Shown: positions 23,225 through 54,813, counted from the stretch's first letter. The stretch: 64,000 nucleotides of DNA from an uncultured Pseudomonadales bacterium (GCA_964618725.1 CAZUBK010000002.1:209543-273542), one strand, 5' to 3'. Notes: generated by a model not told the origin, from the letters alone. A program made the numbers and translations.

Positions 23225-23890
23225 TTACTTAGCTTCTTCTGATTCCGTTTCGGGTTGTGCTTGTTCTGTCTTACCTTCTTCAGTGGAAGTTTCTCCTTCA
23301 GGTGCAGGGGTAGGCTCTTCCTCTATTTGAGGCTCTTGAGCTTGAACAATCTGTTCGTCTGGTTCCGCTTGGATCTTAATTTTGGAGGTATCGATTTTTA
23401 GATCTTCAACAGAAAGAGAGTCTCCGATTTCTTTAAGACTGGAGATATCGAGAGTTAGCTCGTGAGGAATTTCTGTCGGGAGAGCTTCGACATCAAGTTC
23501 ATTTATCATCTGGATGAGGACGGCACCTTTATCTTCAACCGCTGGGGCGGTACCAGTAAGGACGAGAGGAACAGTGGCGGTGACCTTTTGGGTGAGGTCA
23601 ACTTGATGGAAGTCGACGTGAATGGGAAGGTCGGTAATGGGATTGACTTGGAGTGCACTAACTAGGAGGGGGCGGACTTCTTTTTCAGAGTTGACAGTAG
23701 CATAGATGATGGAGGTCTCACCGGCTTTCTCATAAATCTTCTGAAAGTCTTTAAGGCTGATCTGAACCGGAATTGAGGAGATCTTTTTGCCAAAGATGTT
23801 GGCGGGGATAATGTGTTGTCGACGTAATTGTTTTACCTTACGTCCAGAGAGGGTCCGCTTATTAAGATCAAGAGTTAGTTTTTCTGTCAT
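23225..23890 (-). CDS. rplY: 50S ribosomal protein L25 / general stress protein Ctc
   Basis: N-terminal LSGRKVKQLRRQHIIPANIFG and overall L25/Ctc organisation, with an acidic C-terminal tail. Confidence 0.85.
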   Translation of the reverse strand: MTEKLTLDLNKRTLSGRKVKQLRRQHIIPANIFGKKISSIPVQISLKDFQKIYEKAGETSIIYATVNSEKEVRPLLVSALQVNPITDLPIHVDFHQVDLTQKVTATVPLVLTGTAPAVEDKGAVLIQMINELDVEALPTEIPHELTLDISSLKEIGDSLSVEDLKIDTSKIKIQAEPDEQIVQAQEPQIEEEPTPAPEGETSTEEGKTEQAQPETESEEAK

Positions 23891-35076: not shown

Positions 35077-35634
35077 CTAATCGATTCCGGGAGGGGTGGT
35101 AGTGAGTAGGTAGGGAGATAGGGTTTGAAATTCTTGGAGGGTAGTGGGAGTAAAGTACCAGATCTCGACGACTTTGCCAGAGACTTGATGTGTGCCCAGG
35201 GCAATGCCGTGACTTGGGAAGATGTAAACAGGATAATAGGGACCAAGGTAGTCGGTGTAAAGAGTCGCGGCTGGTCGACCTAGCTTGGGGGTAAGATCCC
35301 GAATATTGGTATCTTCTGTGAGTTTGGTTTTTTGGATAAGGAGAGTAACTTCGTTGTCGTCGACGATAGCAACATGGGGATCCTGGACATAATCTGAGGT
35401 GAACTGAAGGGAGGTTTTGCCATTGATTGTGTCTTGGGAAATGGGGTTGCCAAGAACGGCAATGAGATCGGCGGGAGTAGAGATATTGGGGCGGATGTTT
35501 TGATAGGTGAGAGTGGGTTGAGGAAGTGGGGTAAGGAGACGGAACATAATACCAATGACGATGAGAGTAATAAAAATGAGGGGAGTGTAGAATCTGGGGG
35601 AACGGGGATTGAGTTTGGATAAATTAAGTTTCAT
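35077..35634 (-). CDS. bitopic membrane protein, hypothetical (VirB8-like topology; speculative)
   Basis: One N-terminal TM, then ~150-aa extracytoplasmic domain. Start abuts the stop of the 978-aa gene. Confidence 0.45.
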   Translation of the reverse strand: MKLNLSKLNPRSPRFYTPLIFITLIVIGIMFRLLTPLPQPTLTYQNIRPNISTPADLIAVLGNPISQDTINGKTSLQFTSDYVQDPHVAIVDDNEVTLLIQKTKLTEDTNIRDLTPKLGRPAATLYTDYLGPYYPVYIFPSHGIALGTHQVSGKVVEIWYFTPTTLQEFQTLSPYLLTTTPPGID

Positions 35635-38571
35635 TTAGTTTCCTATTGTATATTTTCTAGCAAAACGCATGTGATTTGGATAAGAGGCAGAGACGTTGCA
35701 ATAACTGCCATAGTTGTCGCAGGCGACGAAGACACCAAAAGATTCAGCAAGGTCTTCGGCAATTGGGACGGCGGTAGGATTTTCGTCCCAAGGATAAGTG
35801 TTGAGTAAGCCTTCGCTGCCGATAATGAAAAGAAAGTCTTGGCGGAGCGGAGTGGAGCGATCGGCAAAGTGACCAAGCTCGTGAGCGAGGGTATAGCCGA
35901 CTTTCCAAGGGTCTAGACCAGAAAAGCAGTCATTGAAGTTGTTAAACCAGATGGCATTACCGGTGGCAATTCCGCAAAAATCGACATTGACAGGGTCGTA
36001 TCTTAGATTGATGGTGCCAGTTTTGCAGGCATTGTTCATGAGGATAGGATATCGGGAAGCGATAATAGTAGCAGCATCAGCGATAGCTTTTTGGTGTTCG
36101 GGGACTGGACCCCAGGTATTATCAAACTTAAGACAAGAGATGGTTGGTGGAGCAATGCCTCCACCTCCGGGATAGATACCAGTGCCCCCTGGGCCAACAC
36201 CGGACTCAAGTTGGACGAGGGTGGAAAGGAGGGGGGCAATGTTGATGGTGGGGATGTAGACGAAGAGATAGCCGGCGATGATAGCGGCAAAGATGATGGG
36301 AGCGAGGAAGACGATGGAGATGGAAGACATGATAACAAGAGGGAAGGAGGTAACGGCAACTAAAACAGCACCAGCCCCACCTGCGAGCATTTTCCAGTCG
36401 AAGTCCCAACCAAAGATATTGCGCCAGACGGACTTAAAGCTTTTCCAGAGAAAACCGATGGTTTTTTCAACAACGAAGCCAAGGACGGCACCGACAATGA
36501 TTCCGATAGGACCAGCAAGTGCACCAAGAGTTCCTCCGGCAGCGGCAGCGGCGGTGGTGGTAGCAGCTGTCGTGGCACCTTTGGCGACGAGTTGAGCGGC
36601 AACGGTTTTGAGGCCTTGTTTGATACCTTCTTTGGTGATAGTTTTGGTCGCTTGGCCAAGGAGTTTGACACTGACCTGTTTACTTAGAGATATACCTTGA
36701 ACAAAACCCTTAATGAAACCTCGACCTTCGGCTTGGCCGACTTGTTTCATGACCCAGTTGCCGACAGATTGAGTGGGATGGGAGACAAATCGAAAGGTGG
36801 ATCTTATTGGTTGAGGTAGGGATGAGGCAACCTTTGAGGTGGCAACTTGATATGAAGATGGTTTTTTGGGACGACTGATGTCATGATCGAGACTGGGGAC
36901 TCGGCCCTCGTTTTGGCGGATTTGAGATTGTTTGAGGACTGTTCTGTACAGGTGAAACTGTCGATTCTTGCCGTGTTGTTTTTTTAGCGAGGTAGAGGCT
37001 TTGGCTACATGTCTTGGGGTAATGCCAAGATTACTGAAGCCTATACTACCTGCTAGATGGGGTTCTCTAATGGTTCTAAAAAAAGCTTCTGCTTCAGTGG
37101 CCTTAGCAGTAGGAATGGAGTGAACTTCCGTAGGATTCTGTTTAATTGTGATTTCACGAGTTTCTTTTTGAAGAGAGGCAACGTCTTTGTTTATGTCGTC
37201 GATTACTCTGTTGGCTTCACCTGACTCGATAAGGCGAACAATGGCTTGTTGGTTTCCAGTATTGGTTTTCTCGATGTGTTCTTGGAGAGCGGATTGTTCT
37301 GGATAGGCCTTGTCGGCCTCATTGAGGAGAATACTGTTCTGAAATTTGGCCACTTCTTCGGTGGCTTTCTTAGTAGCTTTAGCAAAACTAATTATTTGTA
37401 GATCTTGATATTGAACAAGAGTGGCAGATTCTGGTTCGAGAAAACTTGTTTTACGAAAGGTGTCAATATCATCGATGGCGTTGATAACTCTGGGATCTGT
37501 GGGAAGAACTTGGGGAAGGTGAGATTGTATTTGTTGATCGAGCGTATATATTTCAGATTCAGGATCGAGACTGGCGGCTATAATGGCGGCATCTTCAGTG
37601 GATTCTATAATGTCGAGAGATGAAAGAAGGGAGAGCGTTTGGATGTTGGCGGTTGAATCAAGTCCTAGGGGGGTGAGGATTTCTTTGGCGAGTTCTGTAT
37701 TGAGAAACTCAGGATCAGTTCCAGGTTTGGTACTGCTGACAACGACCATGGCGAGTTCTTGTTGATGCTGGTCCAGTTCGGCACGTTTTTGTTTGAGAAG
37801 ATTTAGGGCAATTCTTTTTTGGACAAGTTTAAGAATTAATTTTTTTTGGCCATCAGTCTCAAACTTGATGCGGGTTTCTATTTCCTCATTGAGGGCTTGT
37901 GCTTCACTTAAAGCAGAGAGTTGTTGGGCCATTAGAGCTTGATCGACGGTGCCAGAGGTGGTTAGATCTTCATGGTCTTGTTCTCCTGTAGGTGTTTTCT
38001 CACCTCCTTGGGTTTCTTCTTCAAATGTTTCACCTACTTTCTCTTCTTCTTGCTTTGGGGGTTCTTCTTCGGTTTCTGTTTCATCAATACGGGCGACTAC
38101 GGTGTCAGATGGAGTAATGATCTTAGTGTCGTCGTAATAATCGATGCCAGTCTTAAGATTGCTAACTTTTATTGAGTCGCCTACCTGTTTTAGATTGGAG
38201 ACATCTCCGTTTACTAATGTGGGGAGTAATTGAGGATAGCCTTCAAGGGTTAGTTTTTCGAGATGTTGAATTACATCTTTGGAAGAGTCTTGACCAGATA
38301 GGTGAATGGGAATATTGGCCTTAATTTTTTCAAACGACATTTTGTAAAGGCGTCGGGCGAAGGATTTGACTGTATCATCACTCCATCCCTGTCCATGGGG
38401 ATCTTCACTTTTGGACAGTTCCATAACATAACTAAGGGCTTGATTGAATTTACTTTCACTTGGCCTTAAGTTGCTGATAGGAGCTTGGATATAGGAAGCA
38501 ATAACCTGAAGTGCACCCTGAATTCTTTGATCATATTCAGTAATACCTCTCTTTTTGGGATCGTAGGGCAT
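35635..38571 (-). CDS. large coiled-coil/membrane protein with C-terminal HExxH zinc-metallopeptidase-like domain
   Basis: Acidic coiled-coil N-terminal region. Two long hydrophobic segments (aa ~650-760). C-terminal GYTLAHELGHF motif. Lies 42 nt downstream of VirB4. Confidence 0.65.
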   Translation of the reverse strand: MPYDPKKRGITEYDQRIQGALQVIASYIQAPISNLRPSESKFNQALSYVMELSKSEDPHGQGWSDDTVKSFARRLYKMSFEKIKANIPIHLSGQDSSKDVIQHLEKLTLEGYPQLLPTLVNGDVSNLKQVGDSIKVSNLKTGIDYYDDTKIITPSDTVVARIDETETEEEPPKQEEEKVGETFEEETQGGEKTPTGEQDHEDLTTSGTVDQALMAQQLSALSEAQALNEEIETRIKFETDGQKKLILKLVQKRIALNLLKQKRAELDQHQQELAMVVVSSTKPGTDPEFLNTELAKEILTPLGLDSTANIQTLSLLSSLDIIESTEDAAIIAASLDPESEIYTLDQQIQSHLPQVLPTDPRVINAIDDIDTFRKTSFLEPESATLVQYQDLQIISFAKATKKATEEVAKFQNSILLNEADKAYPEQSALQEHIEKTNTGNQQAIVRLIESGEANRVIDDINKDVASLQKETREITIKQNPTEVHSIPTAKATEAEAFFRTIREPHLAGSIGFSNLGITPRHVAKASTSLKKQHGKNRQFHLYRTVLKQSQIRQNEGRVPSLDHDISRPKKPSSYQVATSKVASSLPQPIRSTFRFVSHPTQSVGNWVMKQVGQAEGRGFIKGFVQGISLSKQVSVKLLGQATKTITKEGIKQGLKTVAAQLVAKGATTAATTTAAAAAGGTLGALAGPIGIIVGAVLGFVVEKTIGFLWKSFKSVWRNIFGWDFDWKMLAGGAGAVLVAVTSFPLVIMSSISIVFLAPIIFAAIIAGYLFVYIPTINIAPLLSTLVQLESGVGPGGTGIYPGGGGIAPPTISCLKFDNTWGPVPEHQKAIADAATIIASRYPILMNNACKTGTINLRYDPVNVDFCGIATGNAIWFNNFNDCFSGLDPWKVGYTLAHELGHFADRSTPLRQDFLFIIGSEGLLNTYPWDENPTAVPIAEDLAESFGVFVACDNYGSYCNVSASYPNHMRFARKYTIGN

Positions 38572-41534: not shown

Positions 41535-42494
41535 TTATGTAGTGGCTTTGATTTGGAGTGGGGGGAGGACTTGGCCTTCAAGTTTGAGATCAAAAGTGGG
41601 GAAAGTGTGACCTTCTTTGTCGGCGGCGATTTGGTAACTACCGTCGTCAAGGGGTTTGGCAAAAAGGAATTGACCGAGTTTGTTGCTCTTGGTGGCGCGT
41701 AGTGTCAGGCCATTTTGGAGGATCTCGACGATGGTGGAATCGAGAATCTTGTTGTCAATGGTTAAGGTCATCCCGATTATGGTATTGGGTGTGGTGGGTG
41801 GGTGAGGAATAGGGAGGTTGCTACTAAAGGTAGCGGAAGTTGAGAGTGGAAGAGGAGAAGTCGAGTGTTCTGTAGGAAGGGAGAAGACCGGTATGGGGGC
41901 AGGACGAGGAGAGGGAGGAAGTCGGGGGGGTTCCTGCTCGATATAGAGTGGGGTGGAGACGGGAGTGGCAACTTCTTTAGGGGCTGTGTGGAAAGAGGGA
42001 GATGGTGGGACGGTTTCTGGAATGATGGGAGTAGAGAGGGAGGAGAGAGGCGAAGGAACTAGAGGAGGAGAAACTAGGGTGACAGTAGAAGGCGGGGTGA
42101 CTGGTTTTGGTTCTGGAGCGACGACGGTAATCTGAGATGGGAGAGGGGTGACTAGAGAAGGGGGAGGTAGTGGTGGAGAAGAGAGTTTTGCGAATGGGGA
42201 AGTAGTTTTCTGCCAAGTGTAGACGGTGGGGGAATAGATGGAACGAAAAAAGGCAACGATCCATTGATCAAGAGGGCGGCCTTCGATGGGGAGAAAGGCA
42301 ATTGAGGCGCCGATGGTGACAGAGATGGCAATGGCAGGCCACTTGAGGAAGAAGGGGAGGCCGGAGGCGTAGAAGAGGAGACCAACGATGATACCACCGG
42401 CGAGTTGGAGGAATTGTTTGAGGGTCATGTCACCGACGAGACGGAATTGGTACTGGGTGACGTTTTGGGGGATGGGGTGTTGTTGAACGGGCAT
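41535..42494 (-). CDS. PrgI/VirB3-like membrane protein with Pro-rich extracellular extension
   Basis: N-terminal LKQFLQLAGGIIVGLLFYASGLPFF...AISVTIGASIAFLPIEGRPLDQW (two TM). Sits upstream of VirB4, as PrgI/VirB3 does in Gram-positive T4SS. Long P/S/T-rich C-terminus. Confidence 0.45.
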   Translation of the reverse strand: MPVQQHPIPQNVTQYQFRLVGDMTLKQFLQLAGGIIVGLLFYASGLPFFLKWPAIAISVTIGASIAFLPIEGRPLDQWIVAFFRSIYSPTVYTWQKTTSPFAKLSSPPLPPPSLVTPLPSQITVVAPEPKPVTPPSTVTLVSPPLVPSPLSSLSTPIIPETVPPSPSFHTAPKEVATPVSTPLYIEQEPPRLPPSPRPAPIPVFSLPTEHSTSPLPLSTSATFSSNLPIPHPPTTPNTIIGMTLTIDNKILDSTIVEILQNGLTLRATKSNKLGQFLFAKPLDDGSYQIAADKEGHTFPTFDLKLEGQVLPPLQIKATT

Positions 42495-42556: not shown

Positions 42557-43009
42557 TTAGTCGGTGAAGGATTTAAGAGAAGTATTTTTGAAGACGAGTT
42601 CAAAATCGGAGTCAAAGGTGACGAAATGTTTGATCTTGTGATGGCGGATGGTGAGGAGGTGATAGGCGTCACGGGGTGAGAGCTTGAATTTGTCCATAAG
42701 GAGGGGTATTTGGAGTTGGGATTTGATAGAGAAAGGGGGATTAACTATTTCGAGATATGGCAAAGAAAGGATCTTTTTTAGGTAGTTGTAAATACTTTTG
42801 TTTTGGATGTTTGTTTTTGTTTTGTGATAGTGGATTTTTCGAAGGGAATGCAAGAATTCATCAAGGCATAATGGTGATATACATAAAATCAAGTTTTGTG
42901 AAGCAAGTTTTGTAATGAGGGAAATGCTTTTTTGGTGGTTGAGAGAGTCTTCCTGAAGAAAGCTAACGAGAACGTTTGTATCAAGATAGCAGCTATTGAT
43001 AGATTTCAT
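42557..43009 (-). CDS. vapC: PIN-domain toxin VapC
   Basis: YLDTNVLV N-terminal acidic motif and FVTFDSDF C-terminal motif. Start ATG overlaps vapB by 17 nt. Confidence 0.7.
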   Translation of the reverse strand: MKSINSCYLDTNVLVSFLQEDSLNHQKSISLITKLASQNLILCISPLCLDEFLHSLRKIHYHKTKTNIQNKSIYNYLKKILSLPYLEIVNPPFSIKSQLQIPLLMDKFKLSPRDAYHLLTIRHHKIKHFVTFDSDFELVFKNTSLKSFTD

Positions 43010-43256
43010 ATGATTTATCAATAATCTGGTTAATTTCTTCTGGAGTGAAGTCTCTTCCACCTTTGAAGCCACCGGCGAGGCGTTTGACTAGTTCTTCAGG
43101 AGTTTCTTTGGATATCTTAGGTTCCTGAACGTGAAGAATTATTTGAGACCGTTTTGGTTCGAAGGTAAGTTTACTACCTAGGGGAATATTGAGATCCTTG
43201 GGGAGAATGGTGGCAGTACTTTTGTTTAGTTGGAAGACGGTTGAGGCAAAAGACAT
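42993..43256 (-). CDS. vapB: AbrB/MazE-type antitoxin VapB
   Basis: FQLNKSTATILPKDL SpoVT/AbrB-like N-terminus. 87 aa. Immediately upstream of the PIN toxin. Confidence 0.65.
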   Translation of the reverse strand: MSFASTVFQLNKSTATILPKDLNIPLGSKLTFEPKRSQIILHVQEPKISKETPEELVKRLAGGFKGGRDFTPEEINQIIDKSYEIYQ

Positions 43257-43479: not shown

Positions 43480-46065
43480 ATGGATGAATCAATGAAAGAA
43501 AGAGCTGAGAGAATGGCTGAAAAACCGGAGGACAAAAAGTTTGAGCCCGATTTTGATAGGGCAGGAAAGATTTTGAAAGAAGATGTTGAGAAAGTTCATA
43601 GATTTGTAAGGAAAGCTGGCGATCATATAGTGTATGACGCTGATGGCAATGTGGTTCTTGATGAAAGGAAAGTTAAGGACTTGAGTAAATTGCAGGAACA
43701 AATTGATAAGTTGGTCAAAGTTATGGGAAAGGATCCTGTAACTGATGATGATCAGTTCGAGATTGACTCTAATGCACGAATTGACCAGATAGAGATGAAC
43801 GTTTTGAGACACCTACTTCCTAGAACAAGGTTGATAAAAGTTGCTAATTTGCAGAATAATCCTACTGGTGCAGAAGGAGAACAGGAAGAACTGAGGAGAT
43901 TGAGGGGAGAAGCTCATGTTTTGTTTTTGGAATTTGTGAGAGAGCAGGTGGAAAGAGATAAATATTATCAAGATTTGGTTGCTGGGGATTGGGTTAAGGG
44001 GATTAATGTACCAGAATATAATCAGACAGGAGAGGCTGTTGTGGAACCTGCAACCGCATCGATGTACGCCGCCGCCAGAGGTACCAGAGATTATGTTGGT
44101 CGTCAGGAACCGCCTGCTGGAGGGGGGGGTGGGGAACCACCGAGAGGAGGAGAGGAACCACCAGAGCCGCCACGAGGGAGGGGGGGGCCGCCGCGGGATG
44201 GAGGAACACCAACACCTGAAGAAGGCGAACGGAAGAAAGATCTTGTTTGGGGAGAGAGGGAATGTCCGAATTGTGGAAATGTTGTGACTGCTTTTTCTTC
44301 GAGGTGTTTCTTTTGTAATCGAGATGTAGAAGATGATATAGAAGAAATGAAGAAGGTTAAAAGCCCAAAAGATGCATTTACCTTTAAACAAATTTTTGGC
44401 AGAACAAGGATGGGCAGATATTCGAATGATATTGTAGAAATTGATGGAGAACTCTGTTCTATGTCTTCTTTGGCGATGGAGGTGGAGAATCTTTTGAATT
44501 ATGGATCTAACCCAACTTTTGTGGAAGACAGGATGAGAGATATTTACAAAAAGGCAGATCGTCTGAGAATATTAAATCCTTTGGACAAAAAGGACTATCT
44601 ACTAACTATTAGTAAGATTTGGGAAGCTTCGAAATTAATGAAGTTGGATGAGCAAGGAAAAGCTTCTAGGAGTGAGGCCAGACCTGAAACAGAAGAGGGA
44701 GAGAAAAAAGACAAGAAGTCAGAAGTGACAGAGCTGTCTTCAAATAAAGAGGAGTTGTTCTTGAGAGTGAGAGAAATAGTAAGGGAAGAGTTAAAGAAGA
44801 GGCCCGGTAATGTTGTGGATGTGGCTACCCTACTCAGTCCGTTCGGATTGGCGCTTGGATTACAGCAATATCGGATACCAGAAGGGATGACCGGCTATGT
44901 GGAAGTGAAAGATGCGATAGAAAGGGAAATTGAACTTAGAGTAAGACTTCATAATGCGATGTTGGCAAAAAGTGGTGCTGGTTTGTCGGGAAGGGCTGAT
45001 TCATGGAAAGCAATGAGAGATACGGAGAGATGGAAGAAGACTACCCTGAGAGCTGATGAAACAGGAGATGACTATTTGACAATAGCGACTTTGGAGTCAG
45101 CGGGAGGATTTTCGGTTGGGCTTATGGATAGATCAATACAGTGGTTATATTCGCAGATGGGTGAAGGTAGTCCTTACATAAAATTAGGTGAAAAGGGGGA
45201 GAGGGAAGTACAGATGAAGGAAATAAAAAGAGCAATGCTTTCTGCTTTGGGAGGCGATGAAGTGAAAAATGATGCTTTGGAGTTGGCTTGGCAATTCTGG
45301 GAGATTCATGAAGGATTTTCTCGAGCGGATACTAATAACCCACTTAATCCGCTGGTTCAATTTAAAGAGAGATCTAGATATATGATATTACCCCGTTTCT
45401 TGAAAGATAAAGGGCGCATGGGTTTTGTGACTAATCCTAAGGGTGATGATATTCAAGCGCTTGGGAAAGATGGCTTTGCAATGATTTCTACTGGAGGTGT
45501 GCCGACTCACACCTTGTTGGAAAGTGGTCAATTGTTTGCATCGATTGCTAACTATGGAGTGAATGGTTCGTCTTATGAAAAGATGGTTTCTGGTGTGATT
45601 GCTGGCAGAGAGGTCTATGATTTGTTCAACAAGATGCCGGCGGTAGCTGCTGGTGAACTAATGAAAGAAAGTTTTTGGATTGATGTTAATCCTAAATTTG
45701 GGGCGTTGTTAAAGGCAGGAATAATGAGTAAAGAAGAGCTTGAGACAACAAAGCGGTTGTATTTTAAGTCTTTGTTATGGATGCGTTCCCCAAGAAATGA
45801 AGTGGCAAAACAAGGAAGGGATTACCATTCCCCAGAAGAGATTAGGAGAGCATATCATGCGGCTATTCGGTTGGGTTATCTGAGTCAGGAAAGTGATATC
45901 AGAGAACTTAGGGACTTTGCGAAATCAATCTGGGAGATGATAATCCCGGTGTACGGCGTATCTGAGAGTGAAGCTCAACGGACTATTGCTAGTAGAGAAG
46001 GAGGGCTATCTTGGAGATTGTTTGGGAAAAGAGGTTTTGATTACGAGGGGCCAAGTGCCCAGTAG
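43480..46065 (+). CDS. large cytoplasmic hypothetical protein with zinc-ribbon (CPNCG...CFFCN) and Gly/Pro-rich segment
   Basis: 861 aa, no TM. Cys4 ribbon. Two G8 homopolymer tracts lie in the coding region. Confidence 0.6.
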   Translation: MDESMKERAERMAEKPEDKKFEPDFDRAGKILKEDVEKVHRFVRKAGDHIVYDADGNVVLDERKVKDLSKLQEQIDKLVKVMGKDPVTDDDQFEIDSNARIDQIEMNVLRHLLPRTRLIKVANLQNNPTGAEGEQEELRRLRGEAHVLFLEFVREQVERDKYYQDLVAGDWVKGINVPEYNQTGEAVVEPATASMYAAARGTRDYVGRQEPPAGGGGGEPPRGGEEPPEPPRGRGGPPRDGGTPTPEEGERKKDLVWGERECPNCGNVVTAFSSRCFFCNRDVEDDIEEMKKVKSPKDAFTFKQIFGRTRMGRYSNDIVEIDGELCSMSSLAMEVENLLNYGSNPTFVEDRMRDIYKKADRLRILNPLDKKDYLLTISKIWEASKLMKLDEQGKASRSEARPETEEGEKKDKKSEVTELSSNKEELFLRVREIVREELKKRPGNVVDVATLLSPFGLALGLQQYRIPEGMTGYVEVKDAIEREIELRVRLHNAMLAKSGAGLSGRADSWKAMRDTERWKKTTLRADETGDDYLTIATLESAGGFSVGLMDRSIQWLYSQMGEGSPYIKLGEKGEREVQMKEIKRAMLSALGGDEVKNDALELAWQFWEIHEGFSRADTNNPLNPLVQFKERSRYMILPRFLKDKGRMGFVTNPKGDDIQALGKDGFAMISTGGVPTHTLLESGQLFASIANYGVNGSSYEKMVSGVIAGREVYDLFNKMPAVAAGELMKESFWIDVNPKFGALLKAGIMSKEELETTKRLYFKSLLWMRSPRNEVAKQGRDYHSPEEIRRAYHAAIRLGYLSQESDIRELRDFAKSIWEMIIPVYGVSESEAQRTIASREGGLSWRLFGKRGFDYEGPSAQ
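44122..44129. repeat. G8 homopolymer tract inside 861-aa gene
   Basis: gggggggg directly visible. A second G8 at 44180-44187. Confidence 0.8.
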
Positions 46066-46103: not shown

Positions 46104-47807
46104 TTATTTTTTCCCTAAAAGACCAGCAGCAGCATCAACCGCTTTTTGTCCCGCGGCGCCATACTTTTGTGCTCCAGAGACAAAGCCGCCTAAGGGACCA
46201 CCAGCACTATCGCGAACAGCTCTTCGGCCGAGAGGTTCAGCAATATGCGTGGATGCCCATCTTTCACCACGGTAGCCTTGATTAAGGGCTTCTCCAATCG
46301 CACTACCATATTTGAAGGCAGGGACCTTTAGGGCGTCTCTGATCATATCTGCGACCTTGGGGGTAAGGAAAATAAGAGCGTAAGCCAGAAGGGAACCGAC
46401 GCCGACGGCAGAGTTGCTACCAAGTGGCCAACCTTCGGTTGAACCAGCGAAATAGGGGGGAACCCACATGTCTTCGTTGTTAATCGGAGAAGAAATGCCC
46501 ATGAAGGAGATGGCAAGCATAAACATTATGGTGATACTGGGAAAAACAGAAATATGGGCAGCAAGGTTTCTGATCCAACCAGAAAAAGATTGACTGCCAG
46601 GAAGGACATTGCCAAGAAGAATTATTGGGGAAAAGATAATACTGATGACAACAGCAGCGTAGGCTTGGATGGCCATGAAGGCAATTTTCAAAAGAACAAA
46701 GAAAAAGGCAATAATAAGAATGAGCTTAATGATGGCACCAATCGGAGTGACGGTAAACATAGCGCCATAGAGGATTGTGGGGAGACCTGTGAGAAGTGAC
46801 GCAATTGAGGAGACTCCGGCGGTAAAAAGAATCTCATAAAGGATTTGAAAACCAAGAAAGGCTCCGCCGAAAGGGGTTTGTCCGGTGATGACCTTAACTG
46901 CATAATCAGTTCCTGACTGGGTACTTAGATCTAGGGGGATATTGAGTCGGGAGAGAACTGGTTGAATTGAATCAGCGAAGGGAATCTGCATGCTAATGTC
47001 AATAATTTGGGCGCCTTGAAGAATACTGACGATGAAAGCGGGGAGGAGGAGAGAGAGGTCGATAATGAACCCAGCGATAGCATAAGAGAAAGTGATGGCG
47101 AGGAGAGTGACAACAAGTTTGGGAATGGCTAACTCAAAGTTAATAACAGTTTGGGCGTTGATTTTGGTACGAAACATTAACATAAAACCGTACAAGACGA
47201 AAATGAGAATGAACATTGTGTAGGCGATGTTACGCATGCCACTCCACGCAGGCAGAATAGGGAGAAGCTTATTAAAACCAAGACCGGCACCCGTGGCTTG
47301 AGCATAGGCGGGTTTAACTAAACGATGTTTCTCTAGGTTGTTGTTGATATGGGCAAGATAGCTGACTCCTGAGGCGGGGGGAGAAGTGATGACGGAAGTG
47401 AGCATTCGTGTTAAAGAAGGGATGGCTGAGGCATCGGCAACTCCGAGCGAAAAGGTGTCAGCAGGATTTTCGGGGATAAATTTGGTCATGAAGTCTAAAA
47501 GAACAATATCTGAAAAACCACGGAAGGCTCCTCGTTGGGTCAGACCATCTGATTGAGAGAAAGTATCAAGGGTGAAGGTATCGAAAATTGCTTGTAAGAC
47601 TGTCTTGTCTGGACATTTTCCTGAATACCAGGTTTCAAGATTCATAACATCCCCAGAACGGGAGTTGCAATAATCTTGGATATCACTAAAGGTATTAACA
47701 ACATCGGCAGCAGCTCCGGCTGGGCCTATGGCTGCAAAAGTGGGCTTGGAGGAAGAGATGAAAAGAAAAGTAGTAAAGACGAGAGTATAGAAAAGACGGC
47801 GGAGCAT
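46104..47807 (-). CDS. VirB6/TrbL-like polytopic membrane protein (candidate T4SS channel component)
   Basis: Signal peptide, ~170-aa extracytoplasmic N-domain, then 6 or more TM helices. Context next to other T4SS-like genes. Homology not verified. Confidence 0.5.
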   Translation of the reverse strand: MLRRLFYTLVFTTFLFISSSKPTFAAIGPAGAAADVVNTFSDIQDYCNSRSGDVMNLETWYSGKCPDKTVLQAIFDTFTLDTFSQSDGLTQRGAFRGFSDIVLLDFMTKFIPENPADTFSLGVADASAIPSLTRMLTSVITSPPASGVSYLAHINNNLEKHRLVKPAYAQATGAGLGFNKLLPILPAWSGMRNIAYTMFILIFVLYGFMLMFRTKINAQTVINFELAIPKLVVTLLAITFSYAIAGFIIDLSLLLPAFIVSILQGAQIIDISMQIPFADSIQPVLSRLNIPLDLSTQSGTDYAVKVITGQTPFGGAFLGFQILYEILFTAGVSSIASLLTGLPTILYGAMFTVTPIGAIIKLILIIAFFFVLLKIAFMAIQAYAAVVISIIFSPIILLGNVLPGSQSFSGWIRNLAAHISVFPSITIMFMLAISFMGISSPINNEDMWVPPYFAGSTEGWPLGSNSAVGVGSLLAYALIFLTPKVADMIRDALKVPAFKYGSAIGEALNQGYRGERWASTHIAEPLGRRAVRDSAGGPLGGFVSGAQKYGAAGQKAVDAAAGLLGKK

Positions 47808-47844: not shown

Positions 47845-50800
47845 TTAATTGCTCCAATCTATGGAGGGAAGTATTTTGGAGTAGTCGAGACCTTCATTGT
47901 TTACCTGGGTTGCCTTGTAGGCAGCATTGATTTGAGCAGGCCAATTGAAGGTGCCGGGTTGACTGTCGGTATAGGTACAGGAAAAGTCGTATTGAGGTGG
48001 CTCTCGGCGACAGGCGGCGTCGCCACAAGCAAAAATCTGAAAAAATTCGAGGATGCTGGCGCGGTCAGTGGGGGAATCGAGAGCACGACAATCGAGGTGG
48101 TTACTTTGGGTGGAGTAGGCGTATTGAAGAGAAGTAAAGCATTCAAGTTGAGCGGTTAGATTATTGTTGATTCCGCCGCCACAACCGAGGTCGTCAACGG
48201 GGTTGAACTTGGCATAGTTACTGGCCCCTGACTCTTCAATCCAGGTAGCCATGGTCATAGCCGGATCCATCCCTTTGACTTTGGCGATGCTGATGACGTA
48301 GTTGTAGCAACGACGGATGTTTTCCTCACTGGTAATGGCATTGGGAGCTTTGGGGTTCCAGACGGTTCCCCCAAGGGCAGTAATAAGGGCATCTACTGGT
48401 TTGACATTATGACCGGAAGGTTCGGGGACGCCGTCACAGAAAGCAAGAGAGGTGTTGGTAGCTGAGTCGCTTGCTTCTGGTGGAATGGAGAAGTCAGGGG
48501 GTATATATGAGGCGGAGACAAAAGAACCGAGATCTTCACAGTCTTCTGACTTGCCAGTTTGAAGGCCAGTGGGAATGAGCCAGAAGTTTCTGAGACGACA
48601 GAGGTCGGATTCGGCACGGCCGCCGAGACGTCTAACGGGAGCAGTGCTTTTATCGGTGATGCCCGCGGTGGCACGGTGTTTGAGATATTCGTCGCCGGTA
48701 ATTTCGGCGGAGAAGTAGGCGGAGGCTTGACCGAGCATGTAGGGGGTGTCGGGTTGGTCCATTGGTTCATAAGTAGCACCGGGGATGAGGCGAGAGGGAT
48801 ACTCAGGGTCTACACTTAATTTGCTGGGGAGCATTTGCGAATACAACGAAAGATTGGTACCGTCTTCGAGGGGTTCGGAGATGAGGCGATTAAGATCAGT
48901 TATTTTGGGATTATTAAAGACGGCGATAGTACGGCCGAAATTGCGGAAAAGTAGACCGCTACTGGCTTCGCCGACGGACTCGGCTTGCATGGTAGTTTTA
49001 TATCCCGAAGTATAGTAGAGGACTGCTCCGGTGAGGGGATTTTTGACGGGGCAACTTTGATCTTCTTTGATTTCTTCGGTTTTGACGGGGACGAGGAGAG
49101 ATTGATCGAGGACGTCGGGGAATTCGTCACCGGGGAGTTTGTCATATTTACGGGTGGGGAGCTTGAGAGGAAAAGTTGGAGGAGAGGAGAGGCTCATGTT
49201 TTTCTCGTCATCTAGATCGCGGCAGAGGTTGTCATAGGCCCAAATATCGACAGTTCGATCAGCGAGGGGGACAAAGACCTGGTCGGATTCAGTATTGAAG
49301 TCAAGGGTGCCATCTTGTTTGTAGGTGATACTGTAGTTATCGGCGGTGTAGAGCTTTTTCTCTCTTTCAGCCAGAAGCCAACTGGGAGAAATGGTATTTA
49401 AGATGCCGCCGACGGGATCACCAATGATGTCACGAAGGGCTTGGATGTATGGCAGGTTTTCGTTGAGGATGCCGACGGTGGTGGCAAAAGTGGTGGGATC
49501 AACGTAACGCAGGGCTAAGTAGCCGCGGACGTTGTCGAAGACAAAAGGCTGAAAGGCATCATACATAGCGCGAGTTTCTGGGTTGAGTTTGGCATATCTT
49601 TCGGCAGCGCTATTACAGACAGGGAATTTAGTTAGACACTTAGGGAGGGAATTGATTAGTTCACTGATGGTAAAGGTGGAGACGACAGGAGGGATGAGGC
49701 TTTCGTCGGTGGAGGTTACAGAACAATCGGGATTGACGATGGCGCCAGTAGAGTCAAGGATATTGACACCGTCGTAGATGAGCCATTCACCGGTGGCAGT
49801 GGGGCAGGCATTTCTAATAAGGGGGGTAATGGCGAGAGGGTGTGACGGACCGGAGGTAATAAAGGCAAGGACGGCATTGAGATCTAGGTCGCCAGTTTTT
49901 GGCTCGAGTCCGTATTCGGTGAAGACGTGAGGTTTACCAGTGGTACCAGTGATCTGTTGTTCCCAGAGCCAGGATTCGGTACCACAACGGATAGATGCAA
50001 AAGCACAGGAAGAAAGAGAATAGACGTTGTGGGCAGTGTAGTCAGCGGCTTGGTAGGCCTCCTTAGCGGTGGCGAGAAAGATGCCGGCGTCACGCTCAGG
50101 ATGAGAGGTATTCATGGGAGCGGCGGCTATTTTGAGGCCACTGAGCCCAGATTTGAAGAAGAGGAGCTGTTCTTTGTAGGTAGTACCACATTGAGCTAGG
50201 TCGCTACAGTTGTATTCTCTGAGATCATTTAGTTCATTGCCGAAGATGACAATATCGGTATTGCGAGTAAAGACGGCAGAGAGGCGAGTGGCAAAGTCTT
50301 TGAGTTGGGTGAGGTAGCCAATTTCGGTGTTTGGTTGTAGGCCGGTGATACGGATAAGGCGGACAGTAGCTTGACTGTAGAGTTGGTTGTAGCGTTGCAG
50401 GGTTCCATCATCTGAGTTGATGGCAAGTAGAAAAGTGACGGGTTTGTTGGCGGCGGCGGTGCCAAAGAAGTCAGCTGTATGACCGTAGCCAATGTTGGTG
50501 CCAGTATTGGAGGGAAGAGGCGGATTGTTGGAGTCTGTCGGGGTAGGGGTGACGCTTGGTGTGGTACCGGGTTCTGGTATATCAGCTGGATCGACAAAGG
50601 GGAAGGGAGAGTCAAAGATGGGTTCGGTGAAGGTGCGTTTGGTTTCTATGTCAACCGGACTTAAGCGATTGAAGATCTCGAGGGCACGATGGAGGAGGTT
50701 ACTGATGTCACCGGTGAGTCCACTACCGACTTTGTAGCGGTGAAACATCCAGGCTTTAGCATTCATTTGTTGTTCTTGAGTAAGGAGCCGCCAGAAAGTG

Positions 50801-51858
50801 CGAAAAGATTCTTTGGGGGTGCCATCTGTAACGAAAAGAGGTTTGTCGGCGAGACCGCTGTAGGGATAGACACGGGCAAGTTTGTCAGGTGTAATAGAGG
50901 ACTCTGCGGCGAGATCGGGACCTAGGCCGCCGAGTTGGAGGCCATTAAAATTAACGAGAAGACGGATATCGATGAACTCTTTACAGTTTGGATCATCGGG
51001 GCCGGAGGGGGTGCAATACCAACCAGTGTTGTCTCGATACGTAGAGGGTGGGGGTCCACCATTGCCGGGGGGGGCGTCGGAGGCTGCCTCTTCGGCACAA
51101 GTGTATCTTTCTAATTGGGCTTGAGGAGTAACGGCGCAAGTGAGTTGATAGTCTTCTAATTGGCTATGGACAAAAGGAACACGTTCTTTGCAGGTGCCGT
51201 TGGGTCGAGAGAGATTGCCGTCATAGGTACAACCATCTTCGGTGCCACCCGAAGCAACAGCACAGAAAGGTATGGGAGGAGGGGGATTGTCAGAAGGAGG
51301 AGGAGTGCCAGGATTATCATTGATGTCGTGACAAGAAGATGGGTCAGCGGGATTATCACAGACTTGGGCACCTCGACAGTCGACGACGTCAGGATTGGCA
51401 CAACAGGAGGCGATGGAGTTACAAACATAGTAACTTTGTCCAGGGTCGACACCTTGGCCGTTGTATTGAAAGGGTCCATTGGTGACGGTGATGACGGCAT
51501 TGTCGACTCCGTCAAAGTCGGGGGAGGTTGTACCGGTCCGAAACTCATTACCAAAACAAAAACGGTTAACCAGATTCCCACTAGCATCAAAACCTTCGGC
51601 ACAGGTGGGAATTATTTCAGTAGAGGTGCCACAAATGGGAGACTTGAGAGCGAACGCAGAAGTATAGAGACTAGGGTTACCACAGCAGATATCAAAACCT
51701 TCATAAGGAACAGAGTCGGTACAGGAGGGGCCGGTGGTGACACATTGGTTGCCTTGGGCATCGGGTCCACTACACCAACAATAGTTGGCACCTTGAGCCG
51801 AGGCTGAAGAAGGGAGGGAAAGAAAGAGAAAGAGGCTGATTAAGAAAGAGAGAAGCAT
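47845..51858 (-). CDS. giant secreted Cys-rich surface protein (1337 aa), candidate adhesin/cell-wall-active protein
   Basis: Signal peptide MLLSFLISLFLFLSLPSSASA, dense Cys clusters, P/S/T-rich linkers. Sits between the VirB6-like gene and the pilin-like array. Confidence 0.65.
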   Translation of the reverse strand: MLLSFLISLFLFLSLPSSASAQGANYCWCSGPDAQGNQCVTTGPSCTDSVPYEGFDICCGNPSLYTSAFALKSPICGTSTEIIPTCAEGFDASGNLVNRFCFGNEFRTGTTSPDFDGVDNAVITVTNGPFQYNGQGVDPGQSYYVCNSIASCCANPDVVDCRGAQVCDNPADPSSCHDINDNPGTPPPSDNPPPPIPFCAVASGGTEDGCTYDGNLSRPNGTCKERVPFVHSQLEDYQLTCAVTPQAQLERYTCAEEAASDAPPGNGGPPPSTYRDNTGWYCTPSGPDDPNCKEFIDIRLLVNFNGLQLGGLGPDLAAESSITPDKLARVYPYSGLADKPLFVTDGTPKESFRTFWRLLTQEQQMNAKAWMFHRYKVGSGLTGDISNLLHRALEIFNRLSPVDIETKRTFTEPIFDSPFPFVDPADIPEPGTTPSVTPTPTDSNNPPLPSNTGTNIGYGHTADFFGTAAANKPVTFLLAINSDDGTLQRYNQLYSQATVRLIRITGLQPNTEIGYLTQLKDFATRLSAVFTRNTDIVIFGNELNDLREYNCSDLAQCGTTYKEQLLFFKSGLSGLKIAAAPMNTSHPERDAGIFLATAKEAYQAADYTAHNVYSLSSCAFASIRCGTESWLWEQQITGTTGKPHVFTEYGLEPKTGDLDLNAVLAFITSGPSHPLAITPLIRNACPTATGEWLIYDGVNILDSTGAIVNPDCSVTSTDESLIPPVVSTFTISELINSLPKCLTKFPVCNSAAERYAKLNPETRAMYDAFQPFVFDNVRGYLALRYVDPTTFATTVGILNENLPYIQALRDIIGDPVGGILNTISPSWLLAEREKKLYTADNYSITYKQDGTLDFNTESDQVFVPLADRTVDIWAYDNLCRDLDDEKNMSLSSPPTFPLKLPTRKYDKLPGDEFPDVLDQSLLVPVKTEEIKEDQSCPVKNPLTGAVLYYTSGYKTTMQAESVGEASSGLLFRNFGRTIAVFNNPKITDLNRLISEPLEDGTNLSLYSQMLPSKLSVDPEYPSRLIPGATYEPMDQPDTPYMLGQASAYFSAEITGDEYLKHRATAGITDKSTAPVRRLGGRAESDLCRLRNFWLIPTGLQTGKSEDCEDLGSFVSASYIPPDFSIPPEASDSATNTSLAFCDGVPEPSGHNVKPVDALITALGGTVWNPKAPNAITSEENIRRCYNYVISIAKVKGMDPAMTMATWIEESGASNYAKFNPVDDLGCGGGINNNLTAQLECFTSLQYAYSTQSNHLDCRALDSPTDRASILEFFQIFACGDAACRREPPQYDFSCTYTDSQPGTFNWPAQINAAYKATQVNNEGLDYSKILPSIDWSN

Positions 51859-51902: not shown

Positions 51903-52229
51903 TTAGGGAATCTGAAATTGAAGTTCGGTAACAGGGGCGCCGGTGAAGGTTTGAATGAGGAGGAGGATGAGCCAGGCGAGACCGAGGCCAATAACGCCGA
52001 CGATGGCAAAGAGCAGAGTCTGCATGCCGGCTTGATATTCTTTGGGGTTATCGGCGCCCATGACAATTTTGGCACCGGCGAAGATGATCATGCCGATGGC
52101 GGCAATGATGATGACGGGGGTAATAATGCCAAGGAGATTGGCAATGACGCATTTAATGCCGCCAAGGGTGGCGACTTCGATACCGGCTTGGACGGTGGCA
52201 CATTGTGGGTCAGCTAGCCAATCAAACAT
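51903..52229 (-). CDS. VirB2/TrbC-pilin-like small membrane protein, paralog 1 (no signal peptide)
   Basis: Two hydrophobic helices separated by a short polar loop (GADNPKEYQAGMQT). Confidence 0.55.
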   Translation of the reverse strand: MFDWLADPQCATVQAGIEVATLGGIKCVIANLLGIITPVIIIAAIGMIIFAGAKIVMGADNPKEYQAGMQTLLFAIVGVIGLGLAWLILLLIQTFTGAPVTELQFQIP

Positions 52230-52245
52230 AGATTTTAGTCAGAAA

Positions 52246-52629
52246 CTAGAAAGGTCTTAGCTCTTGAATGGACTTAGTTGCGTCAAAGATATCGACACCG
52301 AAGAAGGCACCGATAATTCTGATGAGAGCCCAAGAAGCAGCGACAATGGCGAGACCGATGACGGCGCTAGTGATTCTCTGCTGAGCCTTTTCAGTTTTGG
52401 TTTTGTCACCACCGGAGGTTATCCACTCGACACCCCCCCAGACGAGGTAGAGAAAGACGAGGATACCGGAGATGATAAGGGCGACAGAGGCGAGAGAAGA
52501 GACTAATTTACCAAGATCGGTAATCTGGATTTGTTCTGGTTGCTCGATGCCAATGGTTTGAGCAAAGGCGGGAGTCGCGAGAGCAAGAGAAGATAAAAGA
52601 GTTGAAGTAACAGTGAGCGCTTTTTTCAT
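52246..52629 (-). CDS. VirB2/TrbC-pilin-like small membrane protein, paralog 2
   Basis: Signal peptide ending AFA-Q. Family motif WGGVEWITSGGDKTKTEKAQQRITSAVIGLAIV. Confidence 0.6.
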   Translation of the reverse strand: MKKALTVTSTLLSSLALATPAFAQTIGIEQPEQIQITDLGKLVSSLASVALIISGILVFLYLVWGGVEWITSGGDKTKTEKAQQRITSAVIGLAIVAASWALIRIIGAFFGVDIFDATKSIQELRPF

Positions 52630-52704
52630 GTTTGGTTTAGATTGCTAATTAATATGATTATTCCCTAAATGCTAATACTATGTCAATGGGGTCAGACAAG
52701 CGTG

Positions 52705-53028
52705 TTAACTAATGGGGAGAGCTTCTTCTAGGCCGAAGTAAGTGCGGACGATTAACCAGATTGCCCAGGAGGCGGCAACAATAGCGAGACCGATGACGGA
52801 GGCAGTAATGCGCTTCTGGGCGTTTTCGACGTGGGCCTTTTCTCCGCCTGAGGTAATCCACTCAATCCCCCCCCAGACGAGGTAGAGGAAGACGAGGATA
52901 CCGGAGATGACGAGGGCCACATCGACGAGACTTTTGACGAGGGGGCCAATTTCGGTAAAGCCAAAGAAGCTTTCGGCTTCGGATCTAATGTCTGTTTGCA
53001 TAAAAGTTATTATGGCGTAAATGTCCAA
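52705..53028 (-). CDS. VirB2/TrbC-pilin-like small membrane protein, paralog 3
   Basis: WGGIEWITSGGEKAHVENAQKRITASVIGLAIV. Alternative start at 53001. C8 tract at 52867-52874. Confidence 0.55.
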   Translation of the reverse strand: MDIYAIITFMQTDIRSEAESFFGFTEIGPLVKSLVDVALVISGILVFLYLVWGGIEWITSGGEKAHVENAQKRITASVIGLAIVAASWAIWLIVRTYFGLEEALPIS

Positions 53029-53348
53029 TCAATATTAAGGATATCTATCTTGAGGACTTCGGAAATAAAGGCAATGATGGCGTAGGAAGCGACGAGGACG
53101 GTGAGGCCAATGAGGGCATTGCTGATTTTTTTCTGGGAGGCTTCGACTTTGGTTTTGTCACCGCCACCAGTAATCCATTCAATGCCGCCCCAAATGAGGT
53201 AGAGGAGGAAGGTAAGGGCGCCGACGACGACGAGAGTTTTCCAAAGCTGGGCGATATAGAAGGCAAGGCCGGAACCGGCTTCACCGGGAGTAGTGAATTG
53301 AGAAAGGGCAGGATTGGTGATTTGGGCGTAGACGGGCTTGATAAACAT
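53010..53348 (-). CDS. VirB2/TrbC-pilin-like small membrane protein, paralog 4
   Basis: Start at internal ATG (MFIKPVYAQ...), 5 nt after the upstream stop. WGGIEWITGGGDKTKVEASQKKISNALIGLTVL. Confidence 0.55.
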   Translation of the reverse strand: MFIKPVYAQITNPALSQFTTPGEAGSGLAFYIAQLWKTLVVVGALTFLLYLIWGGIEWITGGGDKTKVEASQKKISNALIGLTVLVASYAIIAFISEVLKIDILNIDWTFTP

Positions 53349-53353
53349 GAGTT

Positions 53354-53704: not shown

Positions 53705-53716
53705 ATTTATATTGTA

Positions 53717-54115: not shown

Positions 54116-54119
54116 TTGA

Positions 54120-54476: not shown

Positions 54477-54483
54477 AAGTATT

Positions 54484-54807: not shown

Positions 54808-54813
54808 TTGTGT

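Follow-up and report, generated by a model that had tools for sequence, protein, structure and literature searches.

Results

The gene after VirB4 encodes a membrane protein with a C-terminal HExxH module

The window analyzed here is a 64,000-nucleotide (nt) stretch of DNA deposited under the name of an uncultured Pseudomonadales bacterium (GCA_964618725.1 CAZUBK010000002.1:209543-273542), and the gene in question is an open reading frame (ORF) for a 978-residue membrane protein ending in an HExxH-containing module (Table 1). The ORF is real, running uninterrupted from ATG to stop on the minus strand, which the initial annotation of the sequence had left unstated. A gap of 42 nt separates it from the stop of a VirB4-like ATPase ORF, and its own stop codon (35635-37) directly adjoins the ATG (35632-34) of an ORF for a 185-residue bitopic membrane protein. 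Both neighbors had been proposed in that annotation, as had an acidic N-terminal half, a Gly/Ala/Thr-rich segment, two long hydrophobic segments, and a C-terminal AHELGHF motif, here placed at residues 895-901; all of these features were recovered, the Gly/Ala/Thr content amounting to 60% of residues 651-700. The gene order matches that of pCF10, PrgH-PrgI-PrgJ(VirB4)-PrgK(hydrolase)-PrgL(bitopic). As judged from the sequence, the 978-residue protein is the positional and architectural equivalent of the wall hydrolase (VirB1-like PrgK/TraG) of Gram-positive type IV secretion systems (T4SS), with its enzyme module replaced, and module and cognate bitopic gene together form a discrete, exchangeable two-gene cassette.

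Wall-peptidase modules occupy the same position in related loci

A word-indexed homology search with the full 978-residue protein returned only the protein itself, the C-terminal 188 residues gave no match, and a 10-sequence profile retrieved a single fragment (P0002). Word seeding does not work for so divergent a module, and relatives had to be sought through synteny and exhaustive HMMER searches. The comparison set consisted of 80 VirB4 loci, one genome per species. In 59 of these, VirB4 is followed by a complete gene for a protein of about 500-1900 residues, the spacing ranging from -35 to +300 nt. The 59 syntenic genes, whose products are labeled "hypothetical" in public records, share a layout of a long soluble N-terminal part, two to four hydrophobic segments, and a Cys-containing tail of 150-300 residues.

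The tails are where these proteins differ. A Pfam scan of 60 tails, the window's included, assigned Peptidase_M23 to 27, CHAP to 15, and VanY, NlpC/P60, Amidase_6, and Peptidase_C39_2 to one each; tail classes other than M23 and HExxH are aggregate counts, not assignments per sequence. A recognized peptidoglycan hydrolase domain is found in 45 or more positional orthologues, and the scan gave no match for the tail of the window protein itself. BLAST alignments with M23-bearing orthologues cover the N-terminal part and the transmembrane (TM) region and end at residue 790 (six cases), whereas the alignment with the HExxH-bearing protein of locus L018 extends to residue 970. The HExxH module is common to ten tails, those of the window and of L018, L026, L043, L064, L074-L077, and L080. 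Because the orthologues carry M23, CHAP, and other such domains at the same post-membrane position, the protein in this slot is taken to be a wall-hydrolase equivalent, and that shared position likewise suggests that the HExxH module does a job equivalent to that of M23, CHAP, NlpC/P60, and VanY.

In the M23 tails (L001, L005, L008, L017, L022, L030, L062, and others), the first metal motif reads S-H-x6-D ("SH...AIDI") rather than HxxxD. A strict HxxxD...HxH regular expression had suggested that most M23 tails were degenerate ("dead M23"); this was rejected, since they represent a spacing variant in which the central His and the HxH are intact. A single-linkage BLAST cluster that joined HExxH and M23 tails was also set aside, profiles having identified it as an artifact of shared TM and linker segments.

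The module belongs to an unclassified zincin family

When 1.84 billion cluster representatives were searched exhaustively with phmmer, 36 proteins emerged at E ≤ 1e-3, 34 of them genuine, a count that represents a lower bound since it comes from a single-sequence search. In nearly all of the 34, the module sits at the extreme C terminus of a long TM protein. H897, E898, H901, E939, and E943 are invariant in 39 of 39 family sequences at a mean column identity of about 24%, the sequences being only about 24-33% identical. C813, C849, and Y926 are at least 90% conserved, as are H967 and F970 in a 32-sequence set. The HExxH is not a chance motif, since it is invariant throughout together with two downstream Glu residues; conservation of the motif and of a third ligand was a check suggested in the initial annotation.

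Family profiles match the solved structure 9urd, a surface zinc metallohydrolase lipoprotein of Bacteroidota, at E 1.3e-6. Weaker matches were obtained with anthrax lethal factor (LF; E 6e-4) and PPEP-1/Zmp1 (about 1e-3), 4l7a and M3B being similar. The alignments span the HExxH, the Tyr, the E-x-x-x-E helix, and a C-terminal "YPxHYxFA" helix, which corresponds to "PKTFQFIND" of LF and "PQTYSFLQN" of PPEP-1. In the predicted structure of the module, the HExxH lies within helix 90-108 and E939 within helix 139-156. In PPEP-1, Tyr178 forms the oxyanion hole and Glu185 of the Glu184/185 tandem coordinates the zinc (PMC12828418). By the same correspondence, the third zinc ligand is predicted to be a Glu on the downstream helix, E939, and the module would be zinc dependent. 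The zincin fold proposed for the C-terminal domain in the initial annotation is borne out by prediction, with a mixed β-sheet/helix upper subdomain, an active-site helix, and a helical lower subdomain, and with M34 members as closest structural neighbors, and we count the modeled fold among the results; the module is best described as an unclassified zincin (gluzincin) family nearest M34.

No Pfam family scored above threshold on any of the ten HExxH tails. Sub-threshold Pfam and NCBIfam matches to M43, M64, reprolysin, M48, SprT, and eCIS_core centered on the HExxH helix, and none was accepted. An AlphaFold2 model built from a two-sequence alignment (predicted local distance difference test score [pLDDT] 52.6) and its Foldseek matches to phosphoenolpyruvate carboxykinases were both discarded, the matches being noise.

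The conservation pattern bears on whether the domain is an enzyme at all. In PrgK, the muramidase domain alone is active and the others seem regulatory (PMC12857230), and a degenerate, non-catalytic binding or regulatory role, as proposed for the LytM and CHAP domains of PrgK, could be imagined for the HExxH domain. Such a role is very improbable here, given that the catalytic H, E, H, and E are invariant, and the Y nearly so, across 39 sequences of such low identity, which would be unexpected for a dead enzyme.

In one relative, P0025 (L083 6001-7692), the HExxH module and, after it, a genuine Peptidase_M23 domain are joined in a single protein. This fusion to a true M23 domain ties the HExxH module to wall chemistry.

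Domain anatomy and membrane topology

The long N-terminal part of the 978-residue protein contains a domain overlooked in the initial annotation. Residues 82-164 score above the Pfam gathering threshold for the C-terminal-like β domain of ribosomal protein L25/Ctc (PF14693; 34.8 bits versus a cutoff of 27), and the NCBIfam L25/Ctc match of the protein has an E of 5.6e-11. The same segment is 33% identical (E 3e-11, with reciprocal similarity) to the genome's own L25, encoded at 23225-23890 on the minus strand. Only one other orthologue, that of L015, has such a domain, and its presence in a T4SS membrane protein may reflect domain capture. The acidic region that follows is presumably cytoplasmic; it is only about 15% identical to orthologues and matches no Pfam family. 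Two relatives with the same TM and HExxH layout, P0026 (L088 3071-4627) and P0031, carry a DnaJ J-domain at the N terminus, a pattern that points to varied adaptor domains being recruited by the cytoplasmic part of these subunits, those of P0026 and P0031 bringing in Hsp70.

The TM region is the best-conserved part of the protein among orthologues, and its second hydrophobic stretch is long enough for two helices. No signal peptide was found on the protein. Its topology would be N-in/C-out, anchored in the membrane. The N-terminal part is placed inside because the segment preceding the membrane is rich in Lys and Arg (positive-inside rule) and because the J-domains of P0026 and P0031 must be cytoplasmic; the C-terminal domain is placed outside because all six Cys residues (813, 849, 866, 882, 951, and 958) sit there and because the orthologous tails are wall hydrolases.

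The adjacent bitopic protein tracks the enzyme module

A tblastn search with the 185-residue protein against the 80 loci retrieved exactly nine other HExxH loci, each time with the hit just downstream of the HExxH gene. The family profile scores 196-240 bits in HExxH loci and at most 15 bits elsewhere, where it matches the TM helix only. A partner of this family thus accompanies 10 of 10 HExxH tails and 0 of 49 other tails (Fisher p = 1.6e-11). The association holds in all five further independent contexts (68-166 bits), namely the standalone secreted forms P0007 and P0035, a signal-peptide form encoded beside pilins rather than VirB4 (P0029), P0003, and the DnaJ-fused P0026. Overall, 15 of the 16 contexts of the HExxH module have a gene of the 185-residue type next downstream, and such a gene never comes after other tails. 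At L084 (3604-7351) the unit is split, with VirB4 followed by genes for a 609-residue and a 177-residue protein, a standalone signal-peptide HExxH enzyme (234 residues), and a 214-residue partner, and then by dnaN and dnaA.

Other tails have other partners. Behind M23 tails comes a distinct family of 330-367 residues and behind the remaining tails a third family of 130-225 residues, some members of which contain Big_5 Ig-like domains. All three types have a signal anchor at the N terminus, then a Pro/Thr linker and finally an ectodomain, and outside the TM helix they are mutually unrelated. BLAST single-linkage clustering merged the HExxH-type and M23-type partners; according to the profiles, shared TM and linker segments were responsible. 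Next downstream of the gene for P0025, in which the HExxH module precedes an M23 domain, lies a member of the M23-type partner family. Because the 185-residue type follows the module outside the VirB4 context, and because the M23 type follows P0025, the partner belongs to the enzyme module and tracks the terminal enzyme domain, not the T4SS scaffold.

A simple alternative would have the 185-residue protein as a VirB8/PrgL-like scaffold subunit that co-varies with the tail through contact in the assembled machine and is neither inhibitor nor substrate. Its position and bitopic topology are those of PrgL, which follows PrgK in pCF10; a bitopic partner is present for all three tail classes; and homologues of VirB8 can otherwise hardly be detected in Patescibacteria (PMC12102498). 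Against this, an hhalign comparison of partner and PrgL gave a probability of 1.3%, the unrelatedness of the three classes and the Ig-like domains in one of them would be unexpected for a conserved scaffold, and the partner follows the module even where the latter is a free secreted protein or lies away from VirB4 (L082, L084, and L085). A scaffold subunit of this kind is therefore improbable. The partner is most likely a cognate binder of the module, either an inhibitor/immunity protein or a positioning factor. Among specific roles, inhibition or immunity is a tentative choice that falls somewhat short of an assignment, an adaptor or scaffold function is rather unlikely, and a role as substrate is more doubtful still. 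Searches of PDB and Pfam with the partner profile found nothing meaningful.

Module and partner are exchanged as a two-gene cassette

The boundaries of exchange can be seen at the DNA level in the comparison of L018, which carries an HExxH tail, with L005, which carries an M23 tail. Identity between the two loci is 96.9% on the upstream side (VirB4) and 98.6% over 4.7 kb on the downstream side, and a 123-nt island at the last TM helix is 96% identical. Between L018 10546-11747 and L005 4438-5936 there is no similarity, and this span is exactly the tail plus the partner gene. In four more diverged pairs, similarity stops at or just inside the hydrolase gene and resumes 2-22 nt from the stop codon of the partner. 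DNA comparison of the window with L001, L018, and L005 recovered synteny alone, the sequences being too diverged for breakpoints. In a neighbor-joining tree of VirB4, built without support values, HExxH loci are scattered among M23 and other types, and the evolutionary rate of both cassette genes is about double that of VirB4 (p-distance 0.73 versus 0.34).

The N-terminal part of the hydrolase gene is itself only 72% identical between L018 (8788-10144) and L005 (2782-4075), making the whole gene a divergence hotspot.

Joint exchange of a variable enzymatic C-terminal domain and a small cognate gene beside it is a feature of polymorphic toxins, and the cassette could accordingly be of the effector-immunity type. 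The C-terminal modules (HExxH, M23, CHAP, and others) would then be weapons against the wall or surface of the host bacterium that the cell lives on, the bitopic proteins would be their cognate immunity proteins, shielding the envelope of the producer, and cassette diversity would reflect an arms race or host range. Breakpoints that coincide with the membrane exit and the partner stop, a separate partner class for each tail class, a partner that follows the terminal enzymatic domain even away from VirB4, and the fast evolution of both genes all fit such a scheme. The bacteria-killing X-T4SS effectors, moreover, draw on this repertoire as well (M23, NlpC/P60, amidase, "HExxH") and are paired with cognate immunity proteins (PMC6536674), and the T4SS found in bacteria of the CPR (candidate phyla radiation) is essential to Ca. 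Southlakia epibionticum for epibiotic growth (PMC10633639). What makes this interpretation somewhat unlikely is that only about 24 residues link the enzyme covalently to the membrane of the producer, with no evident release site, that its slot is the canonical T4SS wall-hydrolase slot, that P0025 has the HExxH module without the 185-residue partner, and that the partner resembles no known immunity family in Pfam or PDB profile searches.

The surrounding secretion cluster and its host

The locus is a known kind of chromosomal T4SS, relaxase-less, MPF-FATA-like (Gram-positive type), proximal to dnaA, and equipped with a pilin array; chromosomal systems with such features, pilin arrays included, have already been described for Patescibacteria (PMC12102498, PMC12857230). 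VirB4 is split, a point missed in the initial annotation, its N-terminal and ATPase ORFs following each other without a gap, and the same split occurs in the relatives L084 and L088. The 567-residue polytopic protein is conserved in 43-46 loci and has no Pfam match, and one ORF of the pilin array (53010-53516) matches PF18895. Beyond the 185-residue gene, dnaN and dnaA lie on the opposite strand.

Several further genes lie within or beside the cluster. A 1337-residue secreted protein with a signal peptide and 42 Cys residues is encoded between the pilin array and the VirB6-position gene (47845-51858, minus strand); it is conserved in only five to six loci, and neither the whole protein nor its last 301 residues match Pfam. 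A PIN/VapC-like gene (42557-43072, minus strand) and an 861-residue ORF without a Pfam match (43480-46065, plus strand) lie between prgI and the VirB6-position gene. They look like an insertion into the T4SS cluster, because neither has a homologue in the 80 related loci. A SpoIID-domain protein of the lytic-transglycosylase type (55258-57006, plus strand) flanks the pilin array and is also found in two unrelated HExxH contexts (L085 2397-4199 and L086 1570-3372). It could supply the glycan-cutting activity that is missing from a peptidase-only hydrolase subunit.

The relatives of the window's VirB4 (57-83% identity) all come from Patescibacteria/CPR of the Microgenomates group (Collierbacteria, Shapirobacteria, Amesbacteria, and Woesebacteria), and the host is one of these ultra-small Patescibacteria/Microgenomates bacteria. 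The G+C content of the window is 46%. Many CPR contigs in the collection are labeled as uncultured Pseudomonadales, Gammaproteobacteria, Clostridia, or Bathyarchaeia; such labels are evidently wrong for metagenome-assembled genomes of Patescibacteria.

Table 1. Features of the T4SS locus in the window, with residue numbers referring to the 978-residue protein unless stated otherwise
Feature	Position	Strand	Basis or description
185-aa bitopic partner	35077-35634	minus	Signal-anchor helix aa 13-39 of the partner, Pro/Thr linker, ~135-aa extracytoplasmic domain
978-aa ORF	35635-38571	minus	ATG to stop; T4SS hydrolase-slot (VirB1/PrgK-position) membrane protein
Zincin (gluzincin) metallopeptidase domain, predicted, aa 813-978	35638-36135	minus	Unclassified family nearest M34; extracytoplasmic placement inferred
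E939-D-L-A-E943	35743-35757	minus	Predicted third zinc ligand E939, second-shell E943; E939 aligns to PPEP-1 Glu185 and LF Glu735
Y926 ("TYP" motif)	35794-35796	minus	Predicted transition-state-stabilizing Tyr; aligns to LF Tyr728, one position off PPEP-1 Tyr178
Zinc-binding HExxH (predicted), H897-E898-L-G-H901	35869-35883	minus	Aligns to HExxH of PPEP-1 and LF
C813 + C849, near-invariant Cys pair	36025-36135	minus	Probable disulfide; ≥90% conserved
Gly/Pro-rich flexible tether, aa 789-812 (24 residues)	36136-36207	minus	Sequence ESGVGPGGTGIYPGGGGIAPPTIS; model pLDDT <50
Transmembrane region, aa 675-788	36208-36549	minus	Hydropathy: hydrophobic at 675-709 and 728-782
K/R-rich juxtamembrane segment running into Gly/Ala/Thr-rich stretch, aa 561-674	36550-36891	minus	16 K+R versus 4 D+E
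Acidic fast-evolving region, aa 165-560	36892-38079	minus	65 D+E versus 43 K+R, net charge -22
L25/Ctc C-terminal-like β domain, aa 82-164	38080-38328	minus	Pfam PF14693, E 2.2e-8
Split VirB4, ATPase part, 620 aa	38614-40476	minus	NCBIfam conju_CD1110, E 1.8e-109
Split VirB4, N-terminal part, 291 aa	40477-41352	minus	TrsD and VirB4 N-terminal matches (TrsD/TraC-like)
PrgI/VirB3-like protein	41535-42494	minus	Pfam PF12666, E 3.2e-8; kept in 73/80 loci
567-aa polytopic membrane protein, candidate VirB6/PrgH-position subunit	46104-47807	minus	At least 5 hydrophobic segments; position only
Tandem array of about nine divergent VirB2-like T4SS pilin genes	51903-55212	minus	Shared motif GG.EWITSGG.K

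Discussion

A tethered envelope hydrolase as working model

Based on these data, the 978-residue protein is probably an envelope-hydrolase subunit of the T4SS, in which a tethered extracytoplasmic zinc peptidase replaces the M23- and CHAP-type peptidases of its orthologues. The initial annotation had read it as either a membrane-embedded hydrolase of the secretion apparatus or a secreted or inserted effector, a reading that our analysis supports. In the proposed model, a fast-evolving cytoplasmic region of about 670 residues, with the L25/Ctc-like domain within it, would lead into a TM region of probably three helices. A Gly/Pro tether of about 24 residues would then present the 166-residue metallopeptidase, with a probable C813-C849 disulfide, on the outer face of the membrane. 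There H897, H901, and E939 are predicted to bind zinc, with E898 as general base and Y926 stabilizing the transition state, as in M34. So placed, the module would cut envelope peptide bonds beside the T4SS channel or pilus; candidate targets are peptidoglycan stem peptides and cross-links or wall-associated proteins. Since the tether is short, the model favors the producer's own wall as target, and action at the host contact site, or by released or standalone forms, is possible. The term "VirB1-like" refers to position and architecture.

Two kinds of substrate come into question. Peptidoglycan peptides may be cleaved, and envelope proteins are a somewhat weaker candidate, weighed here because all of the closest folds are protein-cleaving. 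A stronger version of the latter view would make the module a PPEP-like surface-protein protease that cuts a specific envelope protein, such as the 185-residue protein at its Pro-rich linker, the pilins, or adhesins, and not peptidoglycan; cleavage would then regulate attachment, release, or pilus biogenesis. [quoted passage not shown] Prolines P36, P40, and P49 are conserved in the linker after the TM helix of the partner, and a nine-gene pilin array lies in the same cluster. Yet the partner has no conserved Pro-Pro motif, its linker lacks specificity given that M23- and CHAP-class partners share the layout of TM helix and Pro/Thr linker, and the module is interchangeable with M23, CHAP, NlpC/P60, and VanY, whose known substrates are peptidoglycan peptides. 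A dedicated surface-protein protease is thus unlikely.

Several observations weigh against the envelope-hydrolase model itself. To our knowledge, no peptidoglycan hydrolase family has an HExxH M34-like fold, and the nearest structural relatives, the PPEPs and lethal factor, cut proteins rather than peptidoglycan. No recognized peptidoglycan hydrolase domain (SLT, muramidase, CHAP, LytM/M23, or NlpC/P60) was found in the window protein, and BLASTP against PrgK gave a best E of 1.4, that is, no sequence similarity. The loop at residues 702-727 contains five Lys/Arg residues and fits a simple three-TM model poorly. Regarding the cassette, the absence of a 185-residue partner from P0025 means that the partner is not strictly obligatory, and a mirror-tree/Mantel test gave a tail-partner correlation of r 0.68 as compared to 0.66 with VirB4, revealing no excess co-evolution over shared phylogeny.

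A more speculative reading, which we consider rather unlikely as a whole, would make the two-gene unit after VirB4 a hypervariable cassette of the effector-immunity kind. In this scenario, the T4SS-mounted enzymes (M23, CHAP, NlpC/P60, VanY, or the M34-like zincin) would suit the chemistry of the host's wall or surface, breach it at the contact site, and each be kept in check on the producer by their own membrane-tethered inhibitor. Were this true, cassette replacement between near-identical genomes would mark host switching or an arms race, and the cassette would offer a first molecular handle on how the essential CPR T4SS acts upon the host.

The CPR T4SS itself and the idea of a hydrolase after virB4 are already known. 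A survey found VirB1-type hydrolases to be poorly associated with virB4 outside Paceibacteria (PMC12102498), and a review called the role of the Patescibacteria T4SS "completely unknown" (PMC11665869). Four points appear to be new with respect to the literature searched: that the post-VirB4 slot in Microgenomates-type loci consistently holds a membrane protein with an outward-facing wall-peptidase module, that an unclassified M34-like zincin family can fill this slot, that module and cognate bitopic gene form a discrete exchangeable cassette, and that the N-terminal cytoplasmic parts recruit odd domains (L25/Ctc-like and DnaJ). The window's version represents a rare zincin family, with at least about 34 cluster representatives among 1.84 billion. 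It would add an enzyme type to the wall-remodeling components of T4SS and a new branch to the gluzincins, and it bears on which wall the CPR T4SS acts upon, the producer's own in remodeling or that of the host in attack.

Comparison with known systems

The X-Tfe/X-Tfi pairs of Xanthomonadales resemble the cassette in that T4SS-linked modules (M23, NlpC/P60, amidase, lysozyme, and "HExxH metalloprotease") are encoded beside a cognate envelope-located binder (PMC6536674). X-Tfe effectors, however, are free proteins that are directed to VirD4 by a C-terminal XVIPCD signal and injected, whereas the module described here is part of a T4SS membrane subunit, as a fusion; the 64-kb window revealed no VirD4. 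X-Tfi immunity genes usually lie upstream and encode lipoproteins, while the window's partner is downstream and signal-anchored. In Ca. Southlakia epibionticum (Saccharimonadia), peptidase and lysozyme homologues, genes of the wall-hydrolase type, lie directly downstream of virB4 in a CPR T4SS that epibiotic growth requires (PMC12102498, citing Wang et al. 2023). It belongs to a different CPR class, the likeness is one of gene type and position, and an HExxH module is not reported for it.

Among peptidases, the M34 family (Pfam ATLF; PPEP-1, PPEP-2, PPEP-3, and lethal factor) shares with the module the Tyr that precedes the Glu helix and provides its closest structural neighbors. The module is nevertheless only 11-16% identical to these proteins and has 7-12 inserted residues that separate the Tyr from the Glu helix, and none of the ten tails matches ATLF (PF07737) even at E ≤ 10. 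It further differs by its conserved Cys pair, a probable disulfide, and by its fusion to a T4SS membrane protein, and its substrate probably differs as well. The best profile match among solved structures is Peptidase_Mx1 (PF15890; the Bacteroidota [quoted passage not shown]), represented by 9urd and by 4l7a (E 3.7e-4 to 2.6e-3), the alignment spanning the HExxH and the EDFxE helix. The Pfam threshold for Peptidase_Mx1 was not reached, the family appearing in one of ten tails at 11.8 bits versus the required 25.6. Peptidase_Mx1 proteins are surface-tethered, as the window module would be.

A further comparison is with PrgK of pCF10, TraG of pIP501, and other VirB1-like peptidoglycan hydrolases of Gram-positive T4SS. 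The window protein lacks sequence similarity to PrgK and has no glycosidase (SLT/muramidase) domain; its cytoplasmic part of about 670 residues is much longer, and it has several TM segments. Its enzyme is an HExxH zincin, a type not found described for any T4SS hydrolase in the literature searched. In all of these systems, however, the gene lies directly after VirB4 and before that of a bitopic membrane protein, and the M23/LytM and CHAP domains of the window protein's orthologues belong to families found in PrgK and TraG. The overall design is also preserved, with a cytoplasmic N-terminal part, a membrane anchor, and one or more extracellular enzyme domains (PMC12857230), a topology that the window protein would share.

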